Shown here piece by piece: positions 1-6,763 of a stretch of 6,763 bases of DNA. Location of the stretch: contig NZ_JHXR01000047.1 in NCBI RefSeq assembly GCF_000621645.1, positions 1-6,763 on the forward strand. The letters run 5' to 3'. The notes below the pieces were generated by a model. The model was not told the origin of the DNA, made no database searches, and saw only the letters and a program-made list of their open reading frames with translations. This DNA is from Vibrio cholerae ATCC 14035. Lineage in GTDB: Bacteria > Pseudomonadota > Gammaproteobacteria > Enterobacterales > Vibrionaceae. The first letter of the stretch is position 1, and each line of letters opens with the position of its first letter. The translations under genes were made by a program, and so were the position numbers.

Positions 1-231
1 CAGCTTCTTTTTCAATTCCCGAATTTCTATTTGCTCAGGGGTCATAGGTGAAGCTTTAGGTGTTTTCCCTTGGCGTTCTTCTCTAAGCTGGCGAACCCAT
101 TTATCCATCGTGGACTTGCCCACATTCATGGCTTGGGCTGCTTCCGTCACTGAGTAATTTTGGTCTAAGACTAGCTGCGCTGCTTCTAACTTAAATTCTG
201 CGCTAAATAGTCGTCTTGTACGTTTTGTCAT
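1..231 (-). CDS. IS3-family transposase OrfA (HTH part), 5' portion, open to the window edge
   Basis: Own translation from ATG 231-229 gives [77 protein letters not shown] with no stop down to position 1. The pattern FSAEFK...[32 protein letters not shown] is what I recall for IS911-like OrfA. It is absent from the ORF track because it is truncated by the window. Confidence 0.85.
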
Positions 232-290
232 AATGTCACCTGTTAACTTATGAGGTGATGATATCACCTCTAACTAAGTGACCAAATTCA
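1..290 (-). mobile_element. Left end of an IS3-family insertion sequence (partial; continues beyond window start)
   Basis: On the minus strand the element starts 5'-TGAATTTGGTCACTTAG (290 down to 274). The TG start and TGAAnTGGTCA-like terminus resemble IS911/IS3-group terminal inverted repeats. It is followed by a leader hairpin GAGGTGAT/ATCACCTC (252-259/263-270, 3-nt loop), an AGGTGA SD (236-241) and the OrfA ATG at 231. The boundary at 290 is inferred; the other end is outside the window. Confidence 0.7.
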
Positions 291-298
291 CTATGCCA

Positions 299-568
299 CT
301 ACAACTTTCGCCCATTTGGGTATGCGTGAGAGGCTACACCTTTAGCTAAACTACGACAATCACTGCAGTAGCTTTGATAACCATCAGGGTTACGAGCTGT
401 CACTCGTGCAGGAGTTTTTCCAAATGAAGATGGATATGAATGAAAAACATGTTCTCCGCCATTGGCATCTGAACAGTGAGGGCAAGACTTAAATTTCTGT
501 CCAGTCTTGGGGTCTGATTTATGAATTGTTCCTACGTTTAGGCGTTTTCCACAACAACTACATGCCAT
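299..568 (-). CDS. Cys-rich small protein (three CxxC-type pairs, zinc-ribbon-like), function unknown
   Basis: 89-aa ORF with ATG at 568 and a GGAGA SD (574-578) 5 nt upstream. Cysteine pairs are CSCC (aa 3-6), CPHC (29-32) and CSDC (68-71). It is co-oriented with the cassette array. No family was recognised with confidence. Confidence 0.65.
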   Translation of the reverse strand: MACSCCGKRLNVGTIHKSDPKTGQKFKSCPHCSDANGGEHVFHSYPSSFGKTPARVTARNPDGYQSYCSDCRSLAKGVASHAYPNGRKL

Positions 569-654
569 AACTGTCTCCTATAAAAATCTTAGGCACAGAA
601 ATCATAAGGGAAAATCAATATGCAAACCGAGACCTATGCATGCAATTTGTAACC

Positions 655-777
655 TAACGCCCGCCTAAGGGGCTGACAACGCATTACCACTAAACTCAAA
701 CACAACAACTGCAACCACCGCGGCTCATTGGGACTGGAAACGCCACGCGTTGACAGTCCCTCTTGAGGCGTTTGTTA
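655..777 (-). repeat. attC site, VCR class (copy 1, 123 bp)
   Basis: Plus strand reads TAACGCCCGCCTAAGGGGCTGACAACGC...CGCGTTGACAGTCCCTCTTGAGGCGTTTGTTA. The ends are imperfectly complementary (R''/L'' versus L'/R'). The minus strand starts with TAAC (inverse core) and ends with GTTA (core GTTRRRY). Confidence 0.95.
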
Positions 778-785
778 TGTGCGTG

Positions 786-1199
786 CTATTGATGAGCCTT
801 GTTCAACTCCAAAAGATCCCATTTGTTTCCATAAAGATCTTGGAACACAACCACTGTCCCATACTCTTCTACTCGTGGTTCTTCATTAAAAACAACACCC
901 TTGGTCTTCATCAACTCATAATCTCGCCAGAAGTCATTCGTTTGTAGAAACAGAAAAACACGACCTCCAGTCTGATTACCTACAAATTGAGCTTGTTCTT
1001 CGGTACTTGCTTGAGCAAGAAGTAGGTTCGTTCCATTCGAGTTTGGCGGCGAAACTTGAACCCAACGTTTACCACCACCCAAATCGGTATCTTCAACTAA
1101 ACTGAACTGAAGCTTTTTTGTATAGAACTCAATGGCATCATCGTAGTTTTCTACGACAAGTGCGATATTGCCGATTTGCTGTTGAACGACTTTAGACAT
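786..1199 (-). CDS. VOC (glyoxalase/bleomycin-resistance/dioxygenase) superfamily protein
   Basis: 137-aa ORF. It has the beta-alpha-beta-beta-beta style sequence typical of the family (IGNIALVVENYDDAIEFYTKKLQF...; ...YGTVVVFQDLYGNKWDLLE at the C-terminus). Weak GAGAAG SD lies 5 nt upstream of ATG 1199. It sits alone between two attC sites. Confidence 0.85.
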   Translation of the reverse strand: MSKVVQQQIGNIALVVENYDDAIEFYTKKLQFSLVEDTDLGGGKRWVQVSPPNSNGTNLLLAQASTEEQAQFVGNQTGGRVFLFLQTNDFWRDYELMKTKGVVFNEEPRVEEYGTVVVFQDLYGNKWDLLELNKAHQ

Positions 1200-1263
1200 G
1201 CTGACTTCTCAAGATTTCAAAAGCTGAATTCTACACTACTTCGAGATTTTTCGAGAAAGCACA

Positions 1264-1385
1264 TAACGCCCGCCTAAGGGGCAGGCAACGCATAACACTA
1301 AACTCAAACACAACAACCATAACCACCGCAGCTCATTGGGACTGGAAACGCCACGCGTTGACAGTCCCTCTTGAGGCGTTTGTTA
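1264..1385 (-). repeat. attC site, VCR class (copy 2, 122 bp)
   Basis: Same repeat as copy 1, with variants GGGGCAGGC and CCGCAGCTC. The central part is CATAACAC instead of CATTACCAC. Confidence 0.95.
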
Positions 1386-1898
1386 TGCGGTTAATAGCTT
1401 AGACATGTACAGCTCATTAACATACTCACCATCGACAACCAGAGAATGGCGCTTTAAACCCTCAACTTCAAAACCACATGATTCATAAAGCCTTTTAGCT
1501 CTCTCGTTGTGCTGCATTACGGTCAACTCTAGCCGGCTATATCCATGAGAAATCGCCCAACCTTCAAGCTTGTTTACTAATTCTTTTCCAAATCCTTGGC
1601 CTGTAACAGCTTGGAGAAGGCCAATGACCAAAGACATGCAGTGTTTATTGCGATTGGCTGTATTACCTACACCGACAATGAAACCAAAAGCCTTTTCATC
1701 ATTGGTCAGTAAATATATCACCTTATTAGATGAATCATTGAATGAGTGAATAATTTGGATTTGCTGCTCCAGTGTGGTTGTCCTTTCTTCTGGTTCAAGC
1801 AGCATGAATTTAGACTCTCGATCTAATTGGTACATTAATGACAATACTGACTCTGCATCTTCGACTGTTAATTTTCTAATAATCACTTTTTCATCCAT
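1383..1898 (-). CDS. GNAT-family N-acetyltransferase
   Basis: 171 aa from ATG 1898 (MDEKVIIRKLTVEDAE...). The acetyl-CoA motif region is LLQAVTGQGFGKELV, followed by NERAKRLYESCGFE. The track ORF (to 1976) begins at a GTG inside the attC and is an artefactual extension. The TAA stop (1383-1385) is the TAA of the attC inverse core. Confidence 0.9.
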   Translation of the reverse strand: MDEKVIIRKLTVEDAESVLSLMYQLDRESKFMLLEPEERTTTLEQQIQIIHSFNDSSNKVIYLLTNDEKAFGFIVGVGNTANRNKHCMSLVIGLLQAVTGQGFGKELVNKLEGWAISHGYSRLELTVMQHNERAKRLYESCGFEVEGLKRHSLVVDGEYVNELYMSKLLTA

Positions 1899-1913
1899 GC
1901 TCAAATAACTGCA

Positions 1914-2035
1914 TAACGCCCGCCTAAGGGGCTGACAACGCATAACACTAAACTCAAACACAACAACCGTAACCACCGCGGCTCAATGGGACTGGAAACG
2001 CCGCGCGTTGACAGTCCCTCTTGAGGCGTTTGTTA
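1914..2035 (-). repeat. attC site, VCR class (copy 3, 122 bp)
   Basis: Same repeat, with variants CTGACAAC, CTCAATGGG and ACGCCGCGCG. Confidence 0.95.
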
Positions 2036-2036
2036 G

Positions 2037-2065
2037 TTGCCCTACCCCAACACCAGTGCTAACAT
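2037..2065 (+). promoter_or_regulatory. Putative sigma70 promoter of the reverse-oriented TA operon
   Basis: TTGCCC (2037-2042), 17-nt spacer, extended -10 TGcTAACAT (2057-2065). It starts 2 bp after the attC end and lies about 27 nt upstream of the ATG. Hexamer matches are only moderate. Confidence 0.35.
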
Positions 2066-2091
2066 TCGTACACACAACAAAGGAGCTCACC

Positions 2092-2376
2092 ATGGATACT
2101 AGAATTCAATTTCGTGTAGACGAAGAAACAAAACGTTTAGCTCAACAAATGGCTGAAAGCCAAGGTCGAACTCTTAGCGATGCTTGCCGTGAACTCACTG
2201 AACAATTAGCTGAGCAGCAACGCAAGGCATTATCTCACGATGCATGGCTAACTGAACAAGTGAATCAAGCATTTGAGAAGTTCGACTCAGGAAAAGCAGT
2301 ATTCATTGAACATGACATCGCCAAAGCACGAATGGCTGAACGTAAAGCTAAAATCCGAAATCGAGGCCACGCATGA
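2092..2376 (+). CDS. Type II antitoxin, ribbon-helix-helix (RelB/DinJ/ParD-like)
   Basis: 94 aa from ATG 2092 (MDTRIQFRVDEETKRLAQQMAESQGRTLSDACRELTEQL...), which is an RHH N-terminus. AAGGAG SD (2080-2085) lies 6 nt upstream. The stop overlaps the toxin start (ATGA at 2373-2376). The track ORF start at 2008 is a TTG inside the attC. Confidence 0.8.
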   Translation: MDTRIQFRVDEETKRLAQQMAESQGRTLSDACRELTEQLAEQQRKALSHDAWLTEQVNQAFEKFDSGKAVFIEHDIAKARMAERKAKIRNRGHA

Positions 2377-2651
2377 TTTTCTGGGAAGAAGCATCTCTCA
2401 ATGATCGTGAGAAAATTTTCGAATTTCTCTACGACTTTAACCCAGCAGCGGCTAAAAAAACGGATGAGCTCATAGAAGCCAAAGTCGAAAATTTGCTTGA
2501 GCAACCACTAATCGGTGTTCAGCGTGATGGCATTAGAGGCAGATTGCTTATTATCCCTGAGATATCAATGATTGTTTCGTATTGGGTTGATGGTTCTAAA
2601 ATTCGAATAATGCGTGTACTACATCAGAAACAAAAATTTCCAAACGACTGA
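2373..2651 (+). CDS. Type II toxin, RelE/ParE superfamily
   Basis: 92 aa: MIFWEEASLNDREKIFEFLYDFNPAAAKKTDELIEAKVENLLEQPLIG...IVSYWVDGSKIRIMRVLHQKQ. This is the typical ParE/RelE plasmid-stabilisation layout (I.W...A..D...I..., P.aA, P.iG, Y....I.I.RVLH). It is translationally coupled to the upstream antitoxin. Confidence 0.85.
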   Translation: MIFWEEASLNDREKIFEFLYDFNPAAAKKTDELIEAKVENLLEQPLIGVQRDGIRGRLLIIPEISMIVSYWVDGSKIRIMRVLHQKQKFPND

Positions 2652-2670
2652 TTTGTTGCTGATTGGCAAC

Positions 2671-2792
2671 TAACGCCCGCCTAAGGGGCTGGCAACGCAT
2701 AACACTAAACTCAAACACAACAACTGCAACCACCGCGGCTCATTGGGACTGGAAACGCCACGCGTTGACAGTCCCTCTTGAGGCGTTTGTTA
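2671..2792 (-). repeat. attC site, VCR class (copy 4, 122 bp)
   Basis: Same repeat, close to the consensus of the nine copies. Confidence 0.95.
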
Positions 2793-3185
2793 GCTGCGTT
2801 TTTGAACATTGTCACCTTTAGTTTCGATAACAAAATTAACTGAGCGCTCAATTTCAGAGGTGCTCTCAACGTTTTTAATAATTAGCTTTTCTGATATTGA
2901 AACGTGGATATGCATTTCACGTCCCTGTTCTTTAGCTCTAGCCTTAGCGCTAAATATTTTATCGAATACTTTTGATATGTAGTAAACACTCAAGCCTGCA
3001 ACGACATTGGCACCGATAGAAATTAGAACTTCCGTCACTGCGGGGGCGGAAAAACCCTCAGATACATTTAGAGAGAGATCGTGTTCTCTAAATTCGCTGA
3101 ATTCGGACTGGTAAACATCATCGAAAAACTCTTTACCTGGACCCACGACTAAAATTTTTAGTGAGTTCTGGTCATAATCGTTCAT
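2790..3185 (-). CDS. Hypothetical 131-aa protein with one central hydrophobic (possible transmembrane) segment
   Basis: Strong SD AGGAG (3191-3195) lies 5 nt upstream of ATG 3185. The N-terminus is acidic, the hydrophobic stretch is VLISIGANVVAGLSVYYI, and the C-terminal half is charged. The TAA stop is supplied by the attC. No family was recognised. Confidence 0.7.
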   Translation of the reverse strand: MNDYDQNSLKILVVGPGKEFFDDVYQSEFSEFREHDLSLNVSEGFSAPAVTEVLISIGANVVAGLSVYYISKVFDKIFSAKARAKEQGREMHIHVSISEKLIIKNVESTSEIERSVNFVIETKGDNVQKRS

Positions 3186-3202
3186 TTTTTCTCCTGAGCA
3201 AC

Positions 3203-3325
3203 TAACGCCCGCCTAAGGGGCTGGCAACGCACTACCACTAAACTCAAACACAACAACCATAACCACCGCGGCTCAATGGGACTGGAAACGCCACGCGTTG
3301 ACAGTCCCTCTTGAGGCGTTTGTTA
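3203..3325 (-). repeat. attC site, VCR class (copy 5, 123 bp)
   Basis: Same repeat, with central variant CACTACCAC. Confidence 0.95.
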
Positions 3326-3335
3326 GTTTCGTAGC

Positions 3336-3358
3336 CCATTGTTTACCAATGGTTTTTT
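3336..3358 (+). terminator. Intrinsic-terminator-like hairpin plus T6 tract, plus-strand polarity
   Basis: CCATTG (3336-3341) pairs with CAATGG (3347-3352) across a 5-nt loop, followed by TTTTTT (3353-3358). The stem is short and AT-rich, and the T tract is on the strand antisense to the cassette array. The function is uncertain. Confidence 0.3.
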
Positions 3359-3739
3359 AACACCTTTACTTGAAAAGCATTTTACGCAAATGCATCTTAC
3401 AAGCACACGTCCAACACCAAAAGCTGTGAAGCAAGCTACCAAAACTTAAAACGATCAAGGTTAAGTTGGCCACTGTTAATAGTCCGCGACAAAGAAAACC
3501 AGATCACAGCGATGATGCTGCCTTTTGTGAGACTAAGCTGACCGCGCTGAACACCCAACAACGTTGAAGCATCTTGACTTGTTGGCTTGCGGCGACTTTG
3601 AAACTACTGCGTTTTCAACGCTTTCTGCCAAATCAGCATCAAGCAAAACTCAAAAGCCAACTTGTGAAATTTGGATACTAAAAGCTGCATGTTTAATGCA
3701 AATGAGCTTAGATTTTGATGATTTTTGATTGAGAGAAAC

Positions 3740-3862
3740 TAACGCCCGCCTAAGGGGCTGGCAACGCACTACCACTAAACTCAAACACAACAACTGCAAC
3801 CACCGCGGCTCAATGGGACTGGAAACGCCACGCGTTGACAGTCCCTCTTGAGGCGTTTGTTA
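3740..3862 (-). repeat. attC site, VCR class (copy 6, 123 bp)
   Basis: Same repeat. It differs from copy 5 only in the variable central CAACTGCAACC / CAACCATAACC segment. Confidence 0.95.
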
Positions 3863-4381
3863 TATGCGTGGTTCCTTGTTTGCCACTGTTCTATCTTTCG
3901 CTAGTTCGATGACGGCGTGCCCTAACTGAACTAGTGTGCCAAAGTTTGGCGTTGTTTCTGGCTTCAAGGAGCGATAAGCACTCGTACGACTTTTTATACC
4001 CGCCTTTGCAATAACTTGACCATGACCAAACTGCTCTACGTAAGAACGAATAGCCGCTTGCAAGATGTCGGGACGCCCCTCCATCATCGATTCCCATGAG
4101 GCCTGTTTGATGACGGCTTCCATTTCTTGAACATTAAAACTTAACTCCACCGACTTTTGTGAGCCCTTGGTTATGTCACGGAGTGTCGCGGCCGTTAACT
4201 CATTACCATCCCAATTTAACGAGCCATCACGAGTCAAGGAAAAGCGTTTAAAGTCCTTAATTTCTGAAAACGGTGCTTTTTTAAAGTATACCGACAAGTC
4301 GGCATAGCCTTGGTAACCATCATTGAACGTCAGTTCTAATGTATGGTCTGAGACAAAATCAACATCTATGACTTTCAACAT
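3860..4381 (-). CDS. DUF2442-like N-terminal domain fused to a C-terminal HigA-like 'addiction module antidote' HTH domain (candidate antitoxin/regulator)
   Basis: 173 aa. The N-terminus VIDVDFVSDHTLELTFNDGYQGYADLS fits my recollection of DUF2442. The C-terminal GRPDILQAAIRSYVEQFGHGQVIAKAGIKSRTSAYRSLKPETTPNFGTLVQLGHAV parallels the recalled consensus of HigA-type antidote proteins (GDPallaaAL..IA.a.Gm.qlA...Gl.R.sLY.aLs..gNP.f.T.lkvl.AlG). The ATG (4379-4381) overlaps the upstream gene's stop (ATGTTGA). The TAA stop lies in the attC. Confidence 0.75.
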   Translation of the reverse strand: MLKVIDVDFVSDHTLELTFNDGYQGYADLSVYFKKAPFSEIKDFKRFSLTRDGSLNWDGNELTAATLRDITKGSQKSVELSFNVQEMEAVIKQASWESMMEGRPDILQAAIRSYVEQFGHGQVIAKAGIKSRTSAYRSLKPETTPNFGTLVQLGHAVIELAKDRTVANKEPRI

Positions 4382-4644
4382 AAATCACCTAACTTACCTG
4401 GATTTTCACCATTCACCGCTTTATTCCACATCACCATCAATTGCTCTCGATGTTCAAGAATATGGTTTTCAGCACGTTTTCGTTGCTTATTGGGTAAGTA
4501 ACCCTCTAAACACTCACCTGTTTCAATAGCAATAATTAGCTCGTAACTACCGTACTTAACGTGAATATGAGGTAATTTATGCTGCTTGTTATCAAAGAAG
4601 TACAAGCAAAATGAAAGACCTAATAGGGCATCAATCTCTGGCAT
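4375..4644 (-). CDS. DUF4160-like protein (candidate toxin/effector partner)
   Basis: 89 aa from ATG 4644 (MPEIDALLGLSFCLYFFDNKQHKLPHIHVKYGSYE...). It shows the MP... start and the DH/H.PH.H..YG motif I associate with DUF4160. AGAGG SD lies 5 nt upstream. The track start (GTG 4650) is 2 codons longer and less likely. Confidence 0.75.
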   Translation of the reverse strand: MPEIDALLGLSFCLYFFDNKQHKLPHIHVKYGSYELIIAIETGECLEGYLPNKQRKRAENHILEHREQLMVMWNKAVNGENPGKLGDLC

Positions 4645-4663
4645 AGCCACCTCTAGTTCATCG

Positions 4664-4702
4664 CTCTAAAGGGACTATAGCAGCGTATCCTTTAGGAGAC
4701 AA
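4664..4702 (-). promoter_or_regulatory. Putative sigma70 promoter with flanking inverted repeat (operator-like) for the DUF4160/DUF2442-HTH operon
   Basis: On the minus strand: TTGTCT (4702-4697), 17 nt, TATAGT (4679-4674). The inverted repeat CCTAAAGG / CCTTTAG(A) (plus coordinates 4689-4696 and 4666-4672) brackets the -10 element. Confidence 0.45.
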
Positions 4703-4716
4703 TTCCTATAAGCATA

Positions 4717-4838
4717 TAACGCCCGCCTAAGGGGCTGGCAGCGCATACTACTAAACTCAAACACAACAACCGAAACCACCGCGGCTCAATGGGACTGGAA
4801 ACGCTACGCGTTGACAGTCCCTCTTGAGGCGTTTGTTA
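4717..4838 (-). repeat. attC site, VCR class (copy 7, 122 bp)
   Basis: Same repeat, with variants GGCAGCGC, CATACTAC and ACGCTACGCG. Confidence 0.95.
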
Positions 4839-5435
4839 TGTTTGTGGTTCTGAAACGGCTACTCTTTCATTTTTTCTAATGTAGATCAGATGGTTATTAT
4901 AAAACTCACTTTCAACATAACCATGCTGGAGAGCTTTCTTGTAAATTGACGCTACAAAAATATCCGCAAGACTAAAAGTCCGACCAATAATAAAACCTGA
5001 TTCATTACAAATCGTCTGACTTAACTTATCAAGACACAGCATAATCCACTCTCCCCGAACTTTCCGTTTGGATGTTTCATCTAGGTCGGGCCTAAAAAAG
5101 TTAAGCACAGTTCGGTTTTGAGGTGAATGAATACTGGAGTTCACGTATTCACAAACTGAGCGGATTTTTGTTTTTTCCTCAAGACTTTGACCTAGCAATG
5201 GACTCGTTGGAAATCGCTCTTCGAGGTATTCGGCAATAGCCATTGACTCAGTAAATACTAGACCATCAACTAACAACGAAGGCACATAGCCAAATGGATT
5301 CATCACACGATAAGTCGTAGCAAGGTCGTCCGAGCTAACTTCAATTCGTTCGTACGGGATACCTTTGAAATTAAGCATCCATTCAACCCTTTCTGAGCTG
5401 TTGGAACCCTTTGCGCTATAAAGTGACAAGTCCAT
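4836..5435 (-). CDS. Glutathione S-transferase family protein
   Basis: 199 aa from ATG 5435 (GGAG SD 5 nt upstream). The N-terminal thioredoxin-like GST domain is LYSAKGSNSSERVEWMLNFKGIPYE...NPFGYVPSLLVDGLVFTESMAIAEYLEERFP. The track ORF (to 5516) is an extension into the attC. The TAA stop lies in the attC. Confidence 0.88.
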   Translation of the reverse strand: MDLSLYSAKGSNSSERVEWMLNFKGIPYERIEVSSDDLATTYRVMNPFGYVPSLLVDGLVFTESMAIAEYLEERFPTSPLLGQSLEEKTKIRSVCEYVNSSIHSPQNRTVLNFFRPDLDETSKRKVRGEWIMLCLDKLSQTICNESGFIIGRTFSLADIFVASIYKKALQHGYVESEFYNNHLIYIRKNERVAVSEPQT

Positions 5436-5452
5436 TTTAACTCCGAAAAACA

Positions 5453-5574
5453 TAACGCCCGCCCAAGGGGCTGGCAACGCATTACCACTAAACTCAAACA
5501 AAACAACCATAACCACCGCGGCTCATTGGGACTGGAAACGCCACGCGTTGATAGTCCCTTTGAGGCGTTTGTTA
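5453..5574 (-). repeat. attC site, VCR class (copy 8, 122 bp; most divergent copy)
   Basis: Same repeat but with CGCCCAAGGGG (T to C), CAAACAAAAC, GTTGATAGTCC (C to T) and CCCTTTGAGG (1-bp deletion relative to CCCTCTTGAGG). These fall in the normally invariant arms. Confidence 0.9.
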
Positions 5575-5584
5575 GTTTTGGGCG

Positions 5585-6382
5585 CTAGGAAGAAAATTTA
5601 TCTACCAATTTTTGTAGATTATGAGCAGTTGGACGAGACTTTAGCTTTTTGATACCACTTCGAGTCGAAACCTGATGGATACAATTATCAAAGTAGTCAT
5701 GAATTGCTTTGTAGTCTGCTTTAACGGTAGGCTCACATTCATAATGAGCTAGCCTTCCAAAAAGACCACACAGCCAATCTGCACATTGAACCGTTTGATA
5801 TAAATGGCTTTCGACTTGTACTGGAGGTTCTATCAAGCGATAACGAGCATCATCACCAAACATTGCAACAGATGCAGTTTCAACAATTTCACCACGGAGA
5901 ACGTTTTCTTCTTGCTGATCTAGAATAAGCATAAACTTTGCGTCACGCTGTTCACACTCTTGATCAATACACTTTATGACTTCCCTTAATACAGAGTGAT
6001 AAAGTCGCTTGGAATCATGGCCATCAACTCTCCTCTCTTTTTCAATACCGACATAAATTATAAAGCCTCCAGATGCTTTTACCTTATTTAGTAGCCGAAA
6101 AGTCGCCTGCCTTAACTGTCGATATTTGGTAACATTAGTCACAGTGTATAATGAAGCGCCTTTCTTTTCCCACTTTGCAGGGTGAATGCCGCTATTTTTT
6201 AGCTCGTAGTCTAGCAGGCGATTCTTAAGCTGGTAGAAGTATGTCGAGAATTTTCTAACTTCTGTATAAGGTAGGACAACTCCACCCAACCCAAATACAG
6301 GATGTGTTTTGTGGCTTTTGTCGGTAGAAGACAAGTAAGGGCCGATGTGACCAAATTCGTCAAGATATACAATGTAAAGCAA
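5585..6382 (-). CDS. DUF3800-like protein, function unknown
   Basis: The reading frame is open from 6457 (GTG, 290 aa). The preferred start is TTG 6382-6380, with a GGAGG SD (6391-6395) 8 nt upstream, giving 265 aa that begin MLYIVYLDEFGH. The DE motif at the extreme N-terminus and QCAD (QxxD) near the C-terminus (..HLYQTVQCADWLCG..) match my recollection of the DUF3800 (PF12686) signature. Confidence 0.75.
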   Translation of the reverse strand: MLYIVYLDEFGHIGPYLSSTDKSHKTHPVFGLGGVVLPYTEVRKFSTYFYQLKNRLLDYELKNSGIHPAKWEKKGASLYTVTNVTKYRQLRQATFRLLNKVKASGGFIIYVGIEKERRVDGHDSKRLYHSVLREVIKCIDQECEQRDAKFMLILDQQEENVLRGEIVETASVAMFGDDARYRLIEPPVQVESHLYQTVQCADWLCGLFGRLAHYECEPTVKADYKAIHDYFDNCIHQVSTRSGIKKLKSRPTAHNLQKLVDKFSS

Positions 6383-6475
6383 TTTACCAGCCTCCAGATA
6401 CACGAAAGCTCGACCATTAATGTCGAGCCTCGGAAGTGGAGCGCTTCGTGAAACCACGCCTCGCGTCCCACTAAG

Positions 6476-6504
6476 AATTTAGTACTTTGAGCATCTGAAG
6501 TCAA
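6476..6504 (-). promoter_or_regulatory. Putative sigma70 promoter of the DUF3800-like cassette
   Basis: On the minus strand: T-rich tract, TTGACT (6504-6499), 17-nt spacer, TAAATT (6481-6476). It lies immediately downstream of the attC copy 9 crossover. The leader of about 90 nt contains the hairpin GCTCGAC/GTCGAGC (6408-6414/6422-6428). Confidence 0.5.
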
Positions 6505-6512
6505 GAAAAAAC

Positions 6513-6634
6513 TAACGCCCGCCTAAGGGGCTGGCAACGCATACCACTAAACTCAATCACAACAACCGTAACCACCGCGACTCATTGGGACTGGAAACGC
6601 CACGCGTTGACAGTCCCTCTTGAGGCGTTTGTTA
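6513..6634 (-). repeat. attC site, VCR class (copy 9, 122 bp)
   Basis: Same repeat, with variants CATACCAC, CTCAATCAC and CCGCGACTC. Confidence 0.95.
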
Positions 6635-6763
6635 GGTTTGTGCTACGAAGCTCATGTAGTAATAACCACCCAATTCATCATCCACTTGCGACACAATTTC
6701 AAAACCTTGCGACAAATAAAAGTTGAGTGCTTTTTGATTTTGAACCATGCACTTAAGGCTTAA
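6632..6763 (-). CDS. 3' end of a GNAT-family acetyltransferase gene (partial, start beyond window)
   Basis: Own translation in the frame aligned to 6763 gives LSLKCMVQNQKALNFYLSQGFEIVSQVDDELGGYYYMSFVAQT*. This is the classic GNAT C-terminal motif (N..A..FY...GF). The stop is the attC TAA (6632-6634). Confidence 0.6.
   Translation of the reverse strand, partial: LSLKCMVQNQKALNFYLSQGFEIVSQVDDELGGYYYMSFVAQT

Follow-up and report, generated by a model that had tools for sequence, protein, structure and literature searches.

A 977-bp integron cassette in Vibrio cholerae ATCC 14035 very likely carries the known type II toxin–antitoxin (TA) system DhiT/DhiA, namely VCA0497–VCA0498 of the chromosome-2 superintegron. 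The cassette lies on the minus strand, at positions 3743-4719 of the 6,763-nt stretch analysed here (contig NZ_JHXR01000047.1, positions 1 to 6,763; the window). Owing to the identity of both proteins to the described V. cholerae pair and to the published work on the family, the finding correctly recognises a system that had been described before and is not novel. What is new here is the decay of DhiT beside intact DhiA in related loci, a family-conserved dyad in the promoter region, and a DhiT model that has no Foldseek match in solved or viral structures.

The dhiTA cassette contains two open reading frames (ORFs), 4375..4650 and 3860..4381, both on the minus strand, which share the seven nucleotides ATGTTGA (4375-4381). 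The likely start of the first gene is ATG 4644, located 5 nt downstream of the Shine-Dalgarno sequence AGAGG; it gives a protein of 89 residues. This product is of the DUF4160 family (PF13711, E 3e-20) and matches the NCBIfam equivalog model of DhiT, NF048015, over all positions (1-84/84) with 148.5 bits, compared to a cut-off of 100. The second product is 173 residues in size. Its residues 4-60 match DUF2442 (PF10387, E 2.4e-8), and the DhiA equivalog model NF048016 is covered completely (1-160/160) with 274.6 bits, compared to a cut-off of 200. The 91-residue form of the first protein is identical to VC_A0497 of V. cholerae O1 biovar El Tor str. N16961, where it is called a 'hypothetical protein', and the second protein is identical to Q9KM84_VIBCH. 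The names 'toxin DhiT' and 'antitoxin DhiA' are already borne by members of the same 90%-identity clusters (NCBI, UniRef). As expected of the DhiT/DhiA family, the pair is bicistronic and overlapping, with the toxin gene first. Each of the two exact sequences is present on ~600-1000 contigs. Krin and co-workers are said to have presented VCA0497-0498 in 2023 as a second dhiTA member, in which VCA0497 is toxic; VCA0498 reportedly represses the operon promoter, both alone and in complex.

The cassette boundaries were read from the sequence. We took as one cassette the unit that extends from the TT of one attC core site (GTTRRRY) to the G of the next, with an inverse core ending in TAAC. Nine attC repeats of the V. 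cholerae repeat (VCR) type are present across the window; in the repeat alignment, their mean column identity is 84%. Each repeat is ~125 nt in length (TAACAAACGCCTCAAGAGGGACTGTCAACGCG...GCCCCTTAGGCGGGCGTTA in the minus-strand reading), and the spacing between them is 530-1060 bp. The upstream attC core, GTTATAT, is located at 4720-4714 (minus), with 4719 as the first T after its G; the core of the dhiTA cassette itself, GTTAGTT, is located at 3743-3737 (minus), with 3743 as its G. Therefore, both the attC alignment and the core sites define 3743-4719 as exactly one VCR-flanked cassette. As single-stranded DNA, the attC site folds more stably than its shuffles (z -4.3). Its minimum-energy structure is composed of local hairpins, not of the canonical long-range R''/L'' and L'/R' pairing, and the assignment as a cassette was therefore based on the alignment of the repeats. 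All proteins of the window are sequence-identical to V. cholerae proteins, and VCA0497 and VCA0498 have been listed among the superintegron genes, with VCA0498 assigned to COG3636K (PMC4032106).

The AlphaFold model of DhiA (predicted local distance difference test score, pLDDT, 85.7) contains one β domain, formed by residues 1-75, and five helices within residues 84-169 (84-101, 104-118, 120-127, 132-139 and 147-169). In the helical part, residues 97-157 match the HigA-type family 'dnstrm_HI1420' (PF21716) below threshold (E 6e-4), with 20.1 bits compared to cut-offs of 27 for PF21716 and 53.7 for TIGR02684. However, PF21716 is matched by all 21 aligned DhiA relatives (best E 7.5e-8), and homology of the C-terminal region to the HigA/HI1420 family is therefore still likely. 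Like the HI1420/COG3636 antitoxins, which act as both antitoxin and repressor, DhiA has a C-terminal helix-turn-helix (HTH) domain that aligns with theirs. Different from them, its upstream neighbour is not a HigB/RelE-fold toxin but a DUF4160 protein, the model of which has no relative in the PDB. DhiA probably neutralizes its toxin through the added DUF2442 domain, unlike the HigA-type antitoxins. In the PDB, neither single-protein nor profile searches by sequence identified relatives of DhiT or DhiA. The top fold match of the DhiA model is NE0471 of Nitrosomonas europaea (PDB 2AUW, 'putative DNA binding protein'), which shares the architecture of one β domain and one helical domain and aligns over both of them (162 columns, probability 1.0). 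The identity between the two proteins is 14-17%, without any sequence-level match, and the TM-score is 0.37-0.42; the low TM-score fits domains that are oriented differently to each other.

A preliminary description of the window, made from the letters and an ORF list, had proposed a coupled pair of genes overlapping by ATGTTGA, a DUF4160-like first product, a DUF2442-like domain joined to a HigA-like HTH domain in the second, a promoter of its own and a TA-like function with uncharacterised effector chemistry. The ORFs and profile searches above bear out the overlap and the domain assignments, that of the HTH domain through the 21 relatives; the TA-like reading is upheld by the curated DhiT and DhiA models together with published experiments on homologues, and the remark on the chemistry agrees with the record on the DUF4160 toxin. 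The pair had also been called a candidate novel module, which the identity to VC_A0497 and Q9KM84 and the existence of equivalog models for both proteins contradict. Nor is the DUF2442–HTH fusion special to this locus; more than 100 protein clusters show DhiA in this standard form, and the fusion is also found in NE0471. Taken together, the interpretation was right in kind but not novel, and its operator assignment was probably wrong. As a discovery, the locus adds little: the system has a name and curated models, and it belongs to the array-stabilising TA cassettes counted in the superintegron.

The functions of the two proteins can be judged from their homologues. The founding member of the family is DhiTA of Dickeya dadantii 3937 (DDA3937_RS07415/RS07420), in which the DUF4160 toxin gene comes first and is co-transcribed with the DUF2442 antitoxin gene. 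Dickeya DhiT is toxic in Dickeya and in E. coli, without filamentation, and is neutralized by DhiA. The Dickeya operon promoter is repressed by ~50% by DhiA alone and by 70-99% by the DhiT–DhiA complex. Like the dhiTA operon of the window, the Dickeya operon has the toxin gene first, overlapping genes and its own promoter; the toxin-enhanced autorepression is a Dickeya result. Different from the pair in the window, the Dickeya pair is chromosomal and is not located in an integron cassette; the two were compared by description. A pair of the same two domain families in the same gene order (DUF4160, 87 residues; DUF2442, 92 residues) raises the persistence of a Thermus thermophilus plasmid; a plasmid without the second ORF could not be introduced into Thermus, and the first gene is tolerated only in the presence of the second (PMC12724237). 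The Thermus antitoxin, unlike DhiA, is of DUF2442 alone and has no HTH domain, and the module had no effect in E. coli. An AlphaFold 3 prediction of the Thermus heterodimer has also been reported (PMC12724237). In the search of representative proteins, three single polypeptides (P0314, P0269 and P0275) contain an N-terminal DUF2442 and a C-terminal DUF4160 domain; such 'Rosetta stone' fusions suggest direct contact between the domains, unless they are gene-calling read-throughs. Binding of DhiT by the DUF2442 domain is thus suggested by the DUF2442-only antitoxin of Thermus, the fusions and the predicted heterodimer.

A scan of one genome per species identified 79 loci that encode a DhiA relative, 75 of which contain the DhiA N-terminus. 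The hosts include Halomonas/Vreelandella, Rheinheimera, Marinomonas, Aliivibrio, Photobacterium, Shewanella and Edwardsiella. Full-length DhiT is encoded directly upstream of DhiA in 50 of the 75 loci and an N-terminally shortened DhiT ORF in four more, giving the toxin-first order in 54. Intact DhiT is missing in the other 21 loci, about a quarter. No trace of DhiT is detectable in four of them (L025, L057, L060 and L066), and about ten keep only terminal remnants. Discrete lesions are a stop at W73 (L004) and frameshifts (L014 and L024). The copy in L017 is cut off by the start of its contig and carries H28Q. Two copies are full-length, with substitutions at invariant residues; one carries G9V and P25L (L011), and the other carries H26Y and has lost its start codon (L042). 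Of the 21 loci, 20 retain a full-length DhiA reading frame, three of them with a non-ATG first codon (L031, L064 and L067). At the level of sequence, loss of DhiT with retention of DhiA is the expected signature of a TA pair. The loci with decayed dhiT beside full-length dhiA (L004, L011, L014, L017, L024, L026, L028, L029, L031, L042, L062, L064, L067 and L071) form a natural catalogue of probable toxin-inactivating changes; the decayed gene is located upstream of the DhiA match, in most of them at about 2730-3007.

Several related operons are also integron-borne and packed as in the window (L032-L040, L043, L051-L056 and L069, from Aliivibrio, Photobacterium, Shewanella and Marinomonas, including Marinomonas flavescens). 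In these loci, the attC core GTTAYAT is located 11-17 nt before the -35 hexamer, and dhiA ends with a TAA stop codon within the inverse core that follows. In the Halomonas, Rheinheimera and other loci, neither attC motif adjoins the operon.

The model of DhiT is confident (pLDDT 90.3); it contains five strands followed by two helices. In an alignment of 61 DhiT sequences, down to ~30% identity, the cluster H22-x2-P25-H26-x-H28 as well as G9, Y31, G48 and W73 are invariant or nearly so, and DhiT of the window retains every invariant residue. The substitutions in the decayed copies indicate that the H22-x2-P25-H26-x-H28 cluster is important, and this cluster, being both invariant and hit in naturally decayed genes, provides handles for testing DhiT. 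The domain is widespread, with 5,943 cluster representatives at E <= 1e-3. Foldseek returned no significant match of the DhiT model in the PDB (best E 0.15) or among the viral structures of BFVD (best E 0.098). We considered an HUH-type or cupin-type metal site, marked by the H-I-H stretch on a β-strand, and dropped it; the fold search gave no support, and the putative cupin glutamate is not conserved in the alignment. In the NsnC proteins of Menshen, DUF4160 is called an effector domain, which stands in place of PIN, BECR, Toprim and PLD-type domains (PMC12065111). Like DhiT, NsnC puts the domain to use as an effector; unlike the free-standing, 89-residue DhiT that is held by DhiA, NsnC is a larger defence protein that has other partners and carries DUF4160 at its C-terminus. 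Owing to this replacement and to the conserved histidine cluster, our most likely guess is that DhiT would be a nuclease acting on RNA, histidine-dependent and possibly metal-dependent. That DhiT represents a free-standing form of a toxin fold without solved relative, with an H22/H26/H28 chemistry unseen among TA toxins, in a cassette that may also serve in abortive-infection defence, we consider unlikely.

The use of DUF4160 in Menshen bears on what the pair is for. Its main role might be abortive-infection phage defence, in which infection lowers DhiA or blocks its synthesis, DhiT stops the cell and stabilisation of the array is a side effect. In PADLOC, DhiT weakly matches the C-terminal part of DndF (E 2e-3), which, in addition to the NsnC effector domain, points in this direction. 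However, that match amounts to 14.8 bits, and neither DhiT nor DhiA has a significant match to a defence protein among the catalogued anti-phage systems of PADLOC-DB v2, where DhiA has no match at all. Decay of the toxin in relatives is equally compatible with an addiction module and with defence. The published anti-phage screen of 88 V. cholerae integron cassettes is silent either way, because TA cassettes were left out by design and an anti-phage role of dhiTA was thereby skipped. We regard defence as a possible but doubtful main role; a TA cassette that helps to hold the array in place is the reading we prefer.

The promoter that had been proposed inside the cassette was recovered by a promoter scan as TTGTCT and TATAGT, separated by a 17-nt spacer and with a TG extension (4702-4674, minus). 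Compared to shuffles, the region has no excess of promoter-like sites; however, ~45 distinct related loci share the block TTGTCTC...GCTATAGT at this position. VCA0497/0498 are not mentioned in the supplements of the Krin 2018 transcription-start-site paper. When the upstream regions of 51 related loci (~45 distinct) were aligned on the promoter, conservation was restricted to TTGTCTC-N6-GA(T/G)AC-N3/4-GCTATAGT. This stretch contains one dyad, GTCTC-N6-GATAC in the window and GT(C/A)TC-N6-GA(T/G)AC in the family, in which four of the five symmetric positions are complementary in 100% of the 45 distinct loci. At the middle position, the combinations are C/T, found in the window, C/G and A/T; A/G does not occur. 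The centres of the half-sites are 11 bp apart, and in locus L048 the symmetry reaches 12 bp. The HTH region of DhiA is nearly invariant across the family, and a conserved operator site is therefore to be expected; the dyad is the best candidate for it.

The preliminary description had instead assigned autorepression to an inverted repeat that brackets the -10, and this repeat, CTAAAGG/CCTTTAG, does exist; it is perfect over 7 bp, one fewer than claimed. Unrelated 6-bp repeats occur at similar positions in two other lineages (L009/L010 and L058/L059). However, the repeat is found in the window only, where 7/7 positions pair, compared to 13-64% complementarity at those positions in the 45 distinct relatives. 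A repeat of equal quality is held by 7% of the shuffles of the 75-nt leader, and the site that is conserved, as a near-invariant HTH predicts, is the dyad, which lies over the -35. It is thus distinctly unlikely that DhiA operates on the CTAAAGG/CCTTTAG repeat, which we rejected as unconserved and near chance, and the likely operator was placed at the dyad. That the conserved candidate differs from the obvious repeat provides a concrete handle for work on DhiA–DNA binding.

Based on the homologues and on the features above, a mechanism can be proposed for the cassette. DhiT made alone would arrest growth and DhiA would neutralize it, presumably by binding and blocking the toxin through its N-terminal β domain. 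The C-terminal HTH domain of DhiA, as a dimer, may bind GTCTC-N6-GATAC (4700-4685) over the -35 and switch the cassette promoter off; as in the homologues, DhiA alone would repress partly and the DhiT–DhiA complex strongly, with DhiT as co-repressor as in Dickeya. Translation of dhiA is probably coupled to that of dhiT via the ATGTTGA overlap. Because the promoter is located 17 nt inside the cassette boundary, the operon would be expressed at any location of the cassette. When the cassette is lost or excised, a stable toxin may be freed that kills or arrests the cell ('cassette loss killing'), and this could help to hold the silent cassette array in place.

Some observations weigh against this picture. 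Dickeya dhiTA gave no better plasmid maintenance in E. coli (Fig. 8 legend of that study), which indicates that addiction is not universal. The dyad of the window has one mismatched position (C/T); moreover, its role as operator is one that we infer, since the dyad partly coincides with the -35 hexamer and its invariant positions cannot covary. The nuclease guess has no structural support, as the DhiT model has no Foldseek relative in the PDB or BFVD.

The V. cholerae literature is in line with the cassette-holding role. In V. cholerae papers, the total of TA cassettes in the integron is 19. Two systems in this total come from Krin et al. (2023), one of type I ('TA18', vca0495 with two antisense RNAs) and one of type II. 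The same papers describe TA cassettes as having promoters of their own and as causing cassette-loss killing. It is highly improbable that the pair lacks, or has lost, TA activity in this strain and is a small regulator with an accessory protein or an inactive relic: toxins are decayed in many related loci, but DhiT of the window keeps every invariant residue and its 148.5 bits on NF048015, the promoter, Shine-Dalgarno sequence and overlap are intact, the exact proteins recur on the many contigs noted above, and V. cholerae papers count the TA cassettes of Krin et al. (2023) as functional, all 19 having been inactivated to relieve killing.

The coordinates of the cassette and of its parts are collected in Table 1.

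Table 1. Features of the dhiTA cassette in the window
Feature	Position	Strand	Evidence and remarks
Integron cassette carrying dhiT-dhiA	3743..4719	minus	attC repeat family and alignment; boundaries G/TTATAT (4720/4719) and G3743 of GTTAGTT
attC (VCR) site of the dhiTA cassette, inverse core ATATAAC to core GTTAGTT	3737..3867	minus	Nine-copy alignment
-35 hexamer TTGTCT	4697..4702	minus	Promoter scan; TTGTCTC at the same position in all related loci examined
Extended -10, TG-c-TATAGT	4674..4682	minus	TG flag of the scan; TATAGT hexamer 4679-4674; GCTATAGT conserved in relatives
Conserved dyad GTCTC-N6-GATAC, best candidate operator of DhiA	4685..4700	minus	Overlaps -35 and spacer; ~45 distinct loci
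Inverted repeat CTAAAGG (4695-4689) / CCTTTAG (4672-4666) flanking the -10	4666..4695	minus	16 nt apart; probably fortuitous
dhiT (VCA0497), 89-residue DUF4160 toxin, including TGA stop 4377-4375	4375..4644	minus	PF13711, NF048015, identity to VC_A0497, model pLDDT 90.3
Alternative dhiT start GTG	4650	minus	Gives the 91-residue database form
dhiA start / dhiT stop overlap ATGTTGA	4375..4381	minus	Read from the sequence; same 7-nt overlap in ~30 related loci
dhiA (VCA0498), 173-residue antitoxin/repressor, including TAA stop inside the attC inverse core	3860..4381	minus	NF048016, identity to Q9KM84_VIBCH
DhiA N-terminal β domain, residues 1-75, DUF2442, putatively toxin-binding	4157..4381	minus	PF10387, model strands, Thermus DUF2442-only antitoxin, DUF2442-DUF4160 fusions
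DhiA C-terminal five-helix domain, residues 84-169, HigA/COG3636-like HTH, putatively DNA-binding	3875..4132	minus	PF21716 (21/21 relatives), helices, 2AUW fold match, COG3636K

The window also contains a second, classical TA cassette, in line with the addiction modules that had been noted nearby. It encodes a RelB/DinJ antitoxin (94 residues) and a RelE/ParE toxin (92 residues) with a 4-nt overlap (2092-2651, plus), in an orientation opposite to that of all other genes in the window. The cassette directly downstream of dhiTA (3206-3742, minus) has no ORF longer than 54 residues. Its position identifies it as 'C10 (VCA0498-VCA0501)', a cassette without genes, for which promoter activity on both strands has been reported (PMC11014356).

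Two cassettes upstream of dhiTA, one cassette encodes a DUF3800 protein (5588-6457, minus), with an alternative TTG start at 6382 after GGAGG and a TTGACT hexamer just inside the cassette start (~6503). Judged from its position, the gene is probably VCA0495, which is described in V. cholerae papers as a type I toxin with two antisense RNAs. The 131-residue protein Q9KM82 (2793-3185, minus) has no Pfam match; its residues 53-85 show a weak, sub-threshold match to the type I toxin model NF047374 (20.2 bits compared to a cut-off of 60). The 89-residue cysteine-rich protein ORF23 (Q9L988; 302-568, minus) has only a faint match to the GRF zinc ribbon (E 0.0085). In the mechanical ORF list, the entries at 1383-1976, 2596-2733, 4675-4779 and 4836-5516 (all minus) start inside VCR repeats, with the peptide MV.VVVFEFS.MRC.PLRRAL; these VCR-derived N-terminal extensions are artefacts of reading through the repeat, not real coding sequence.

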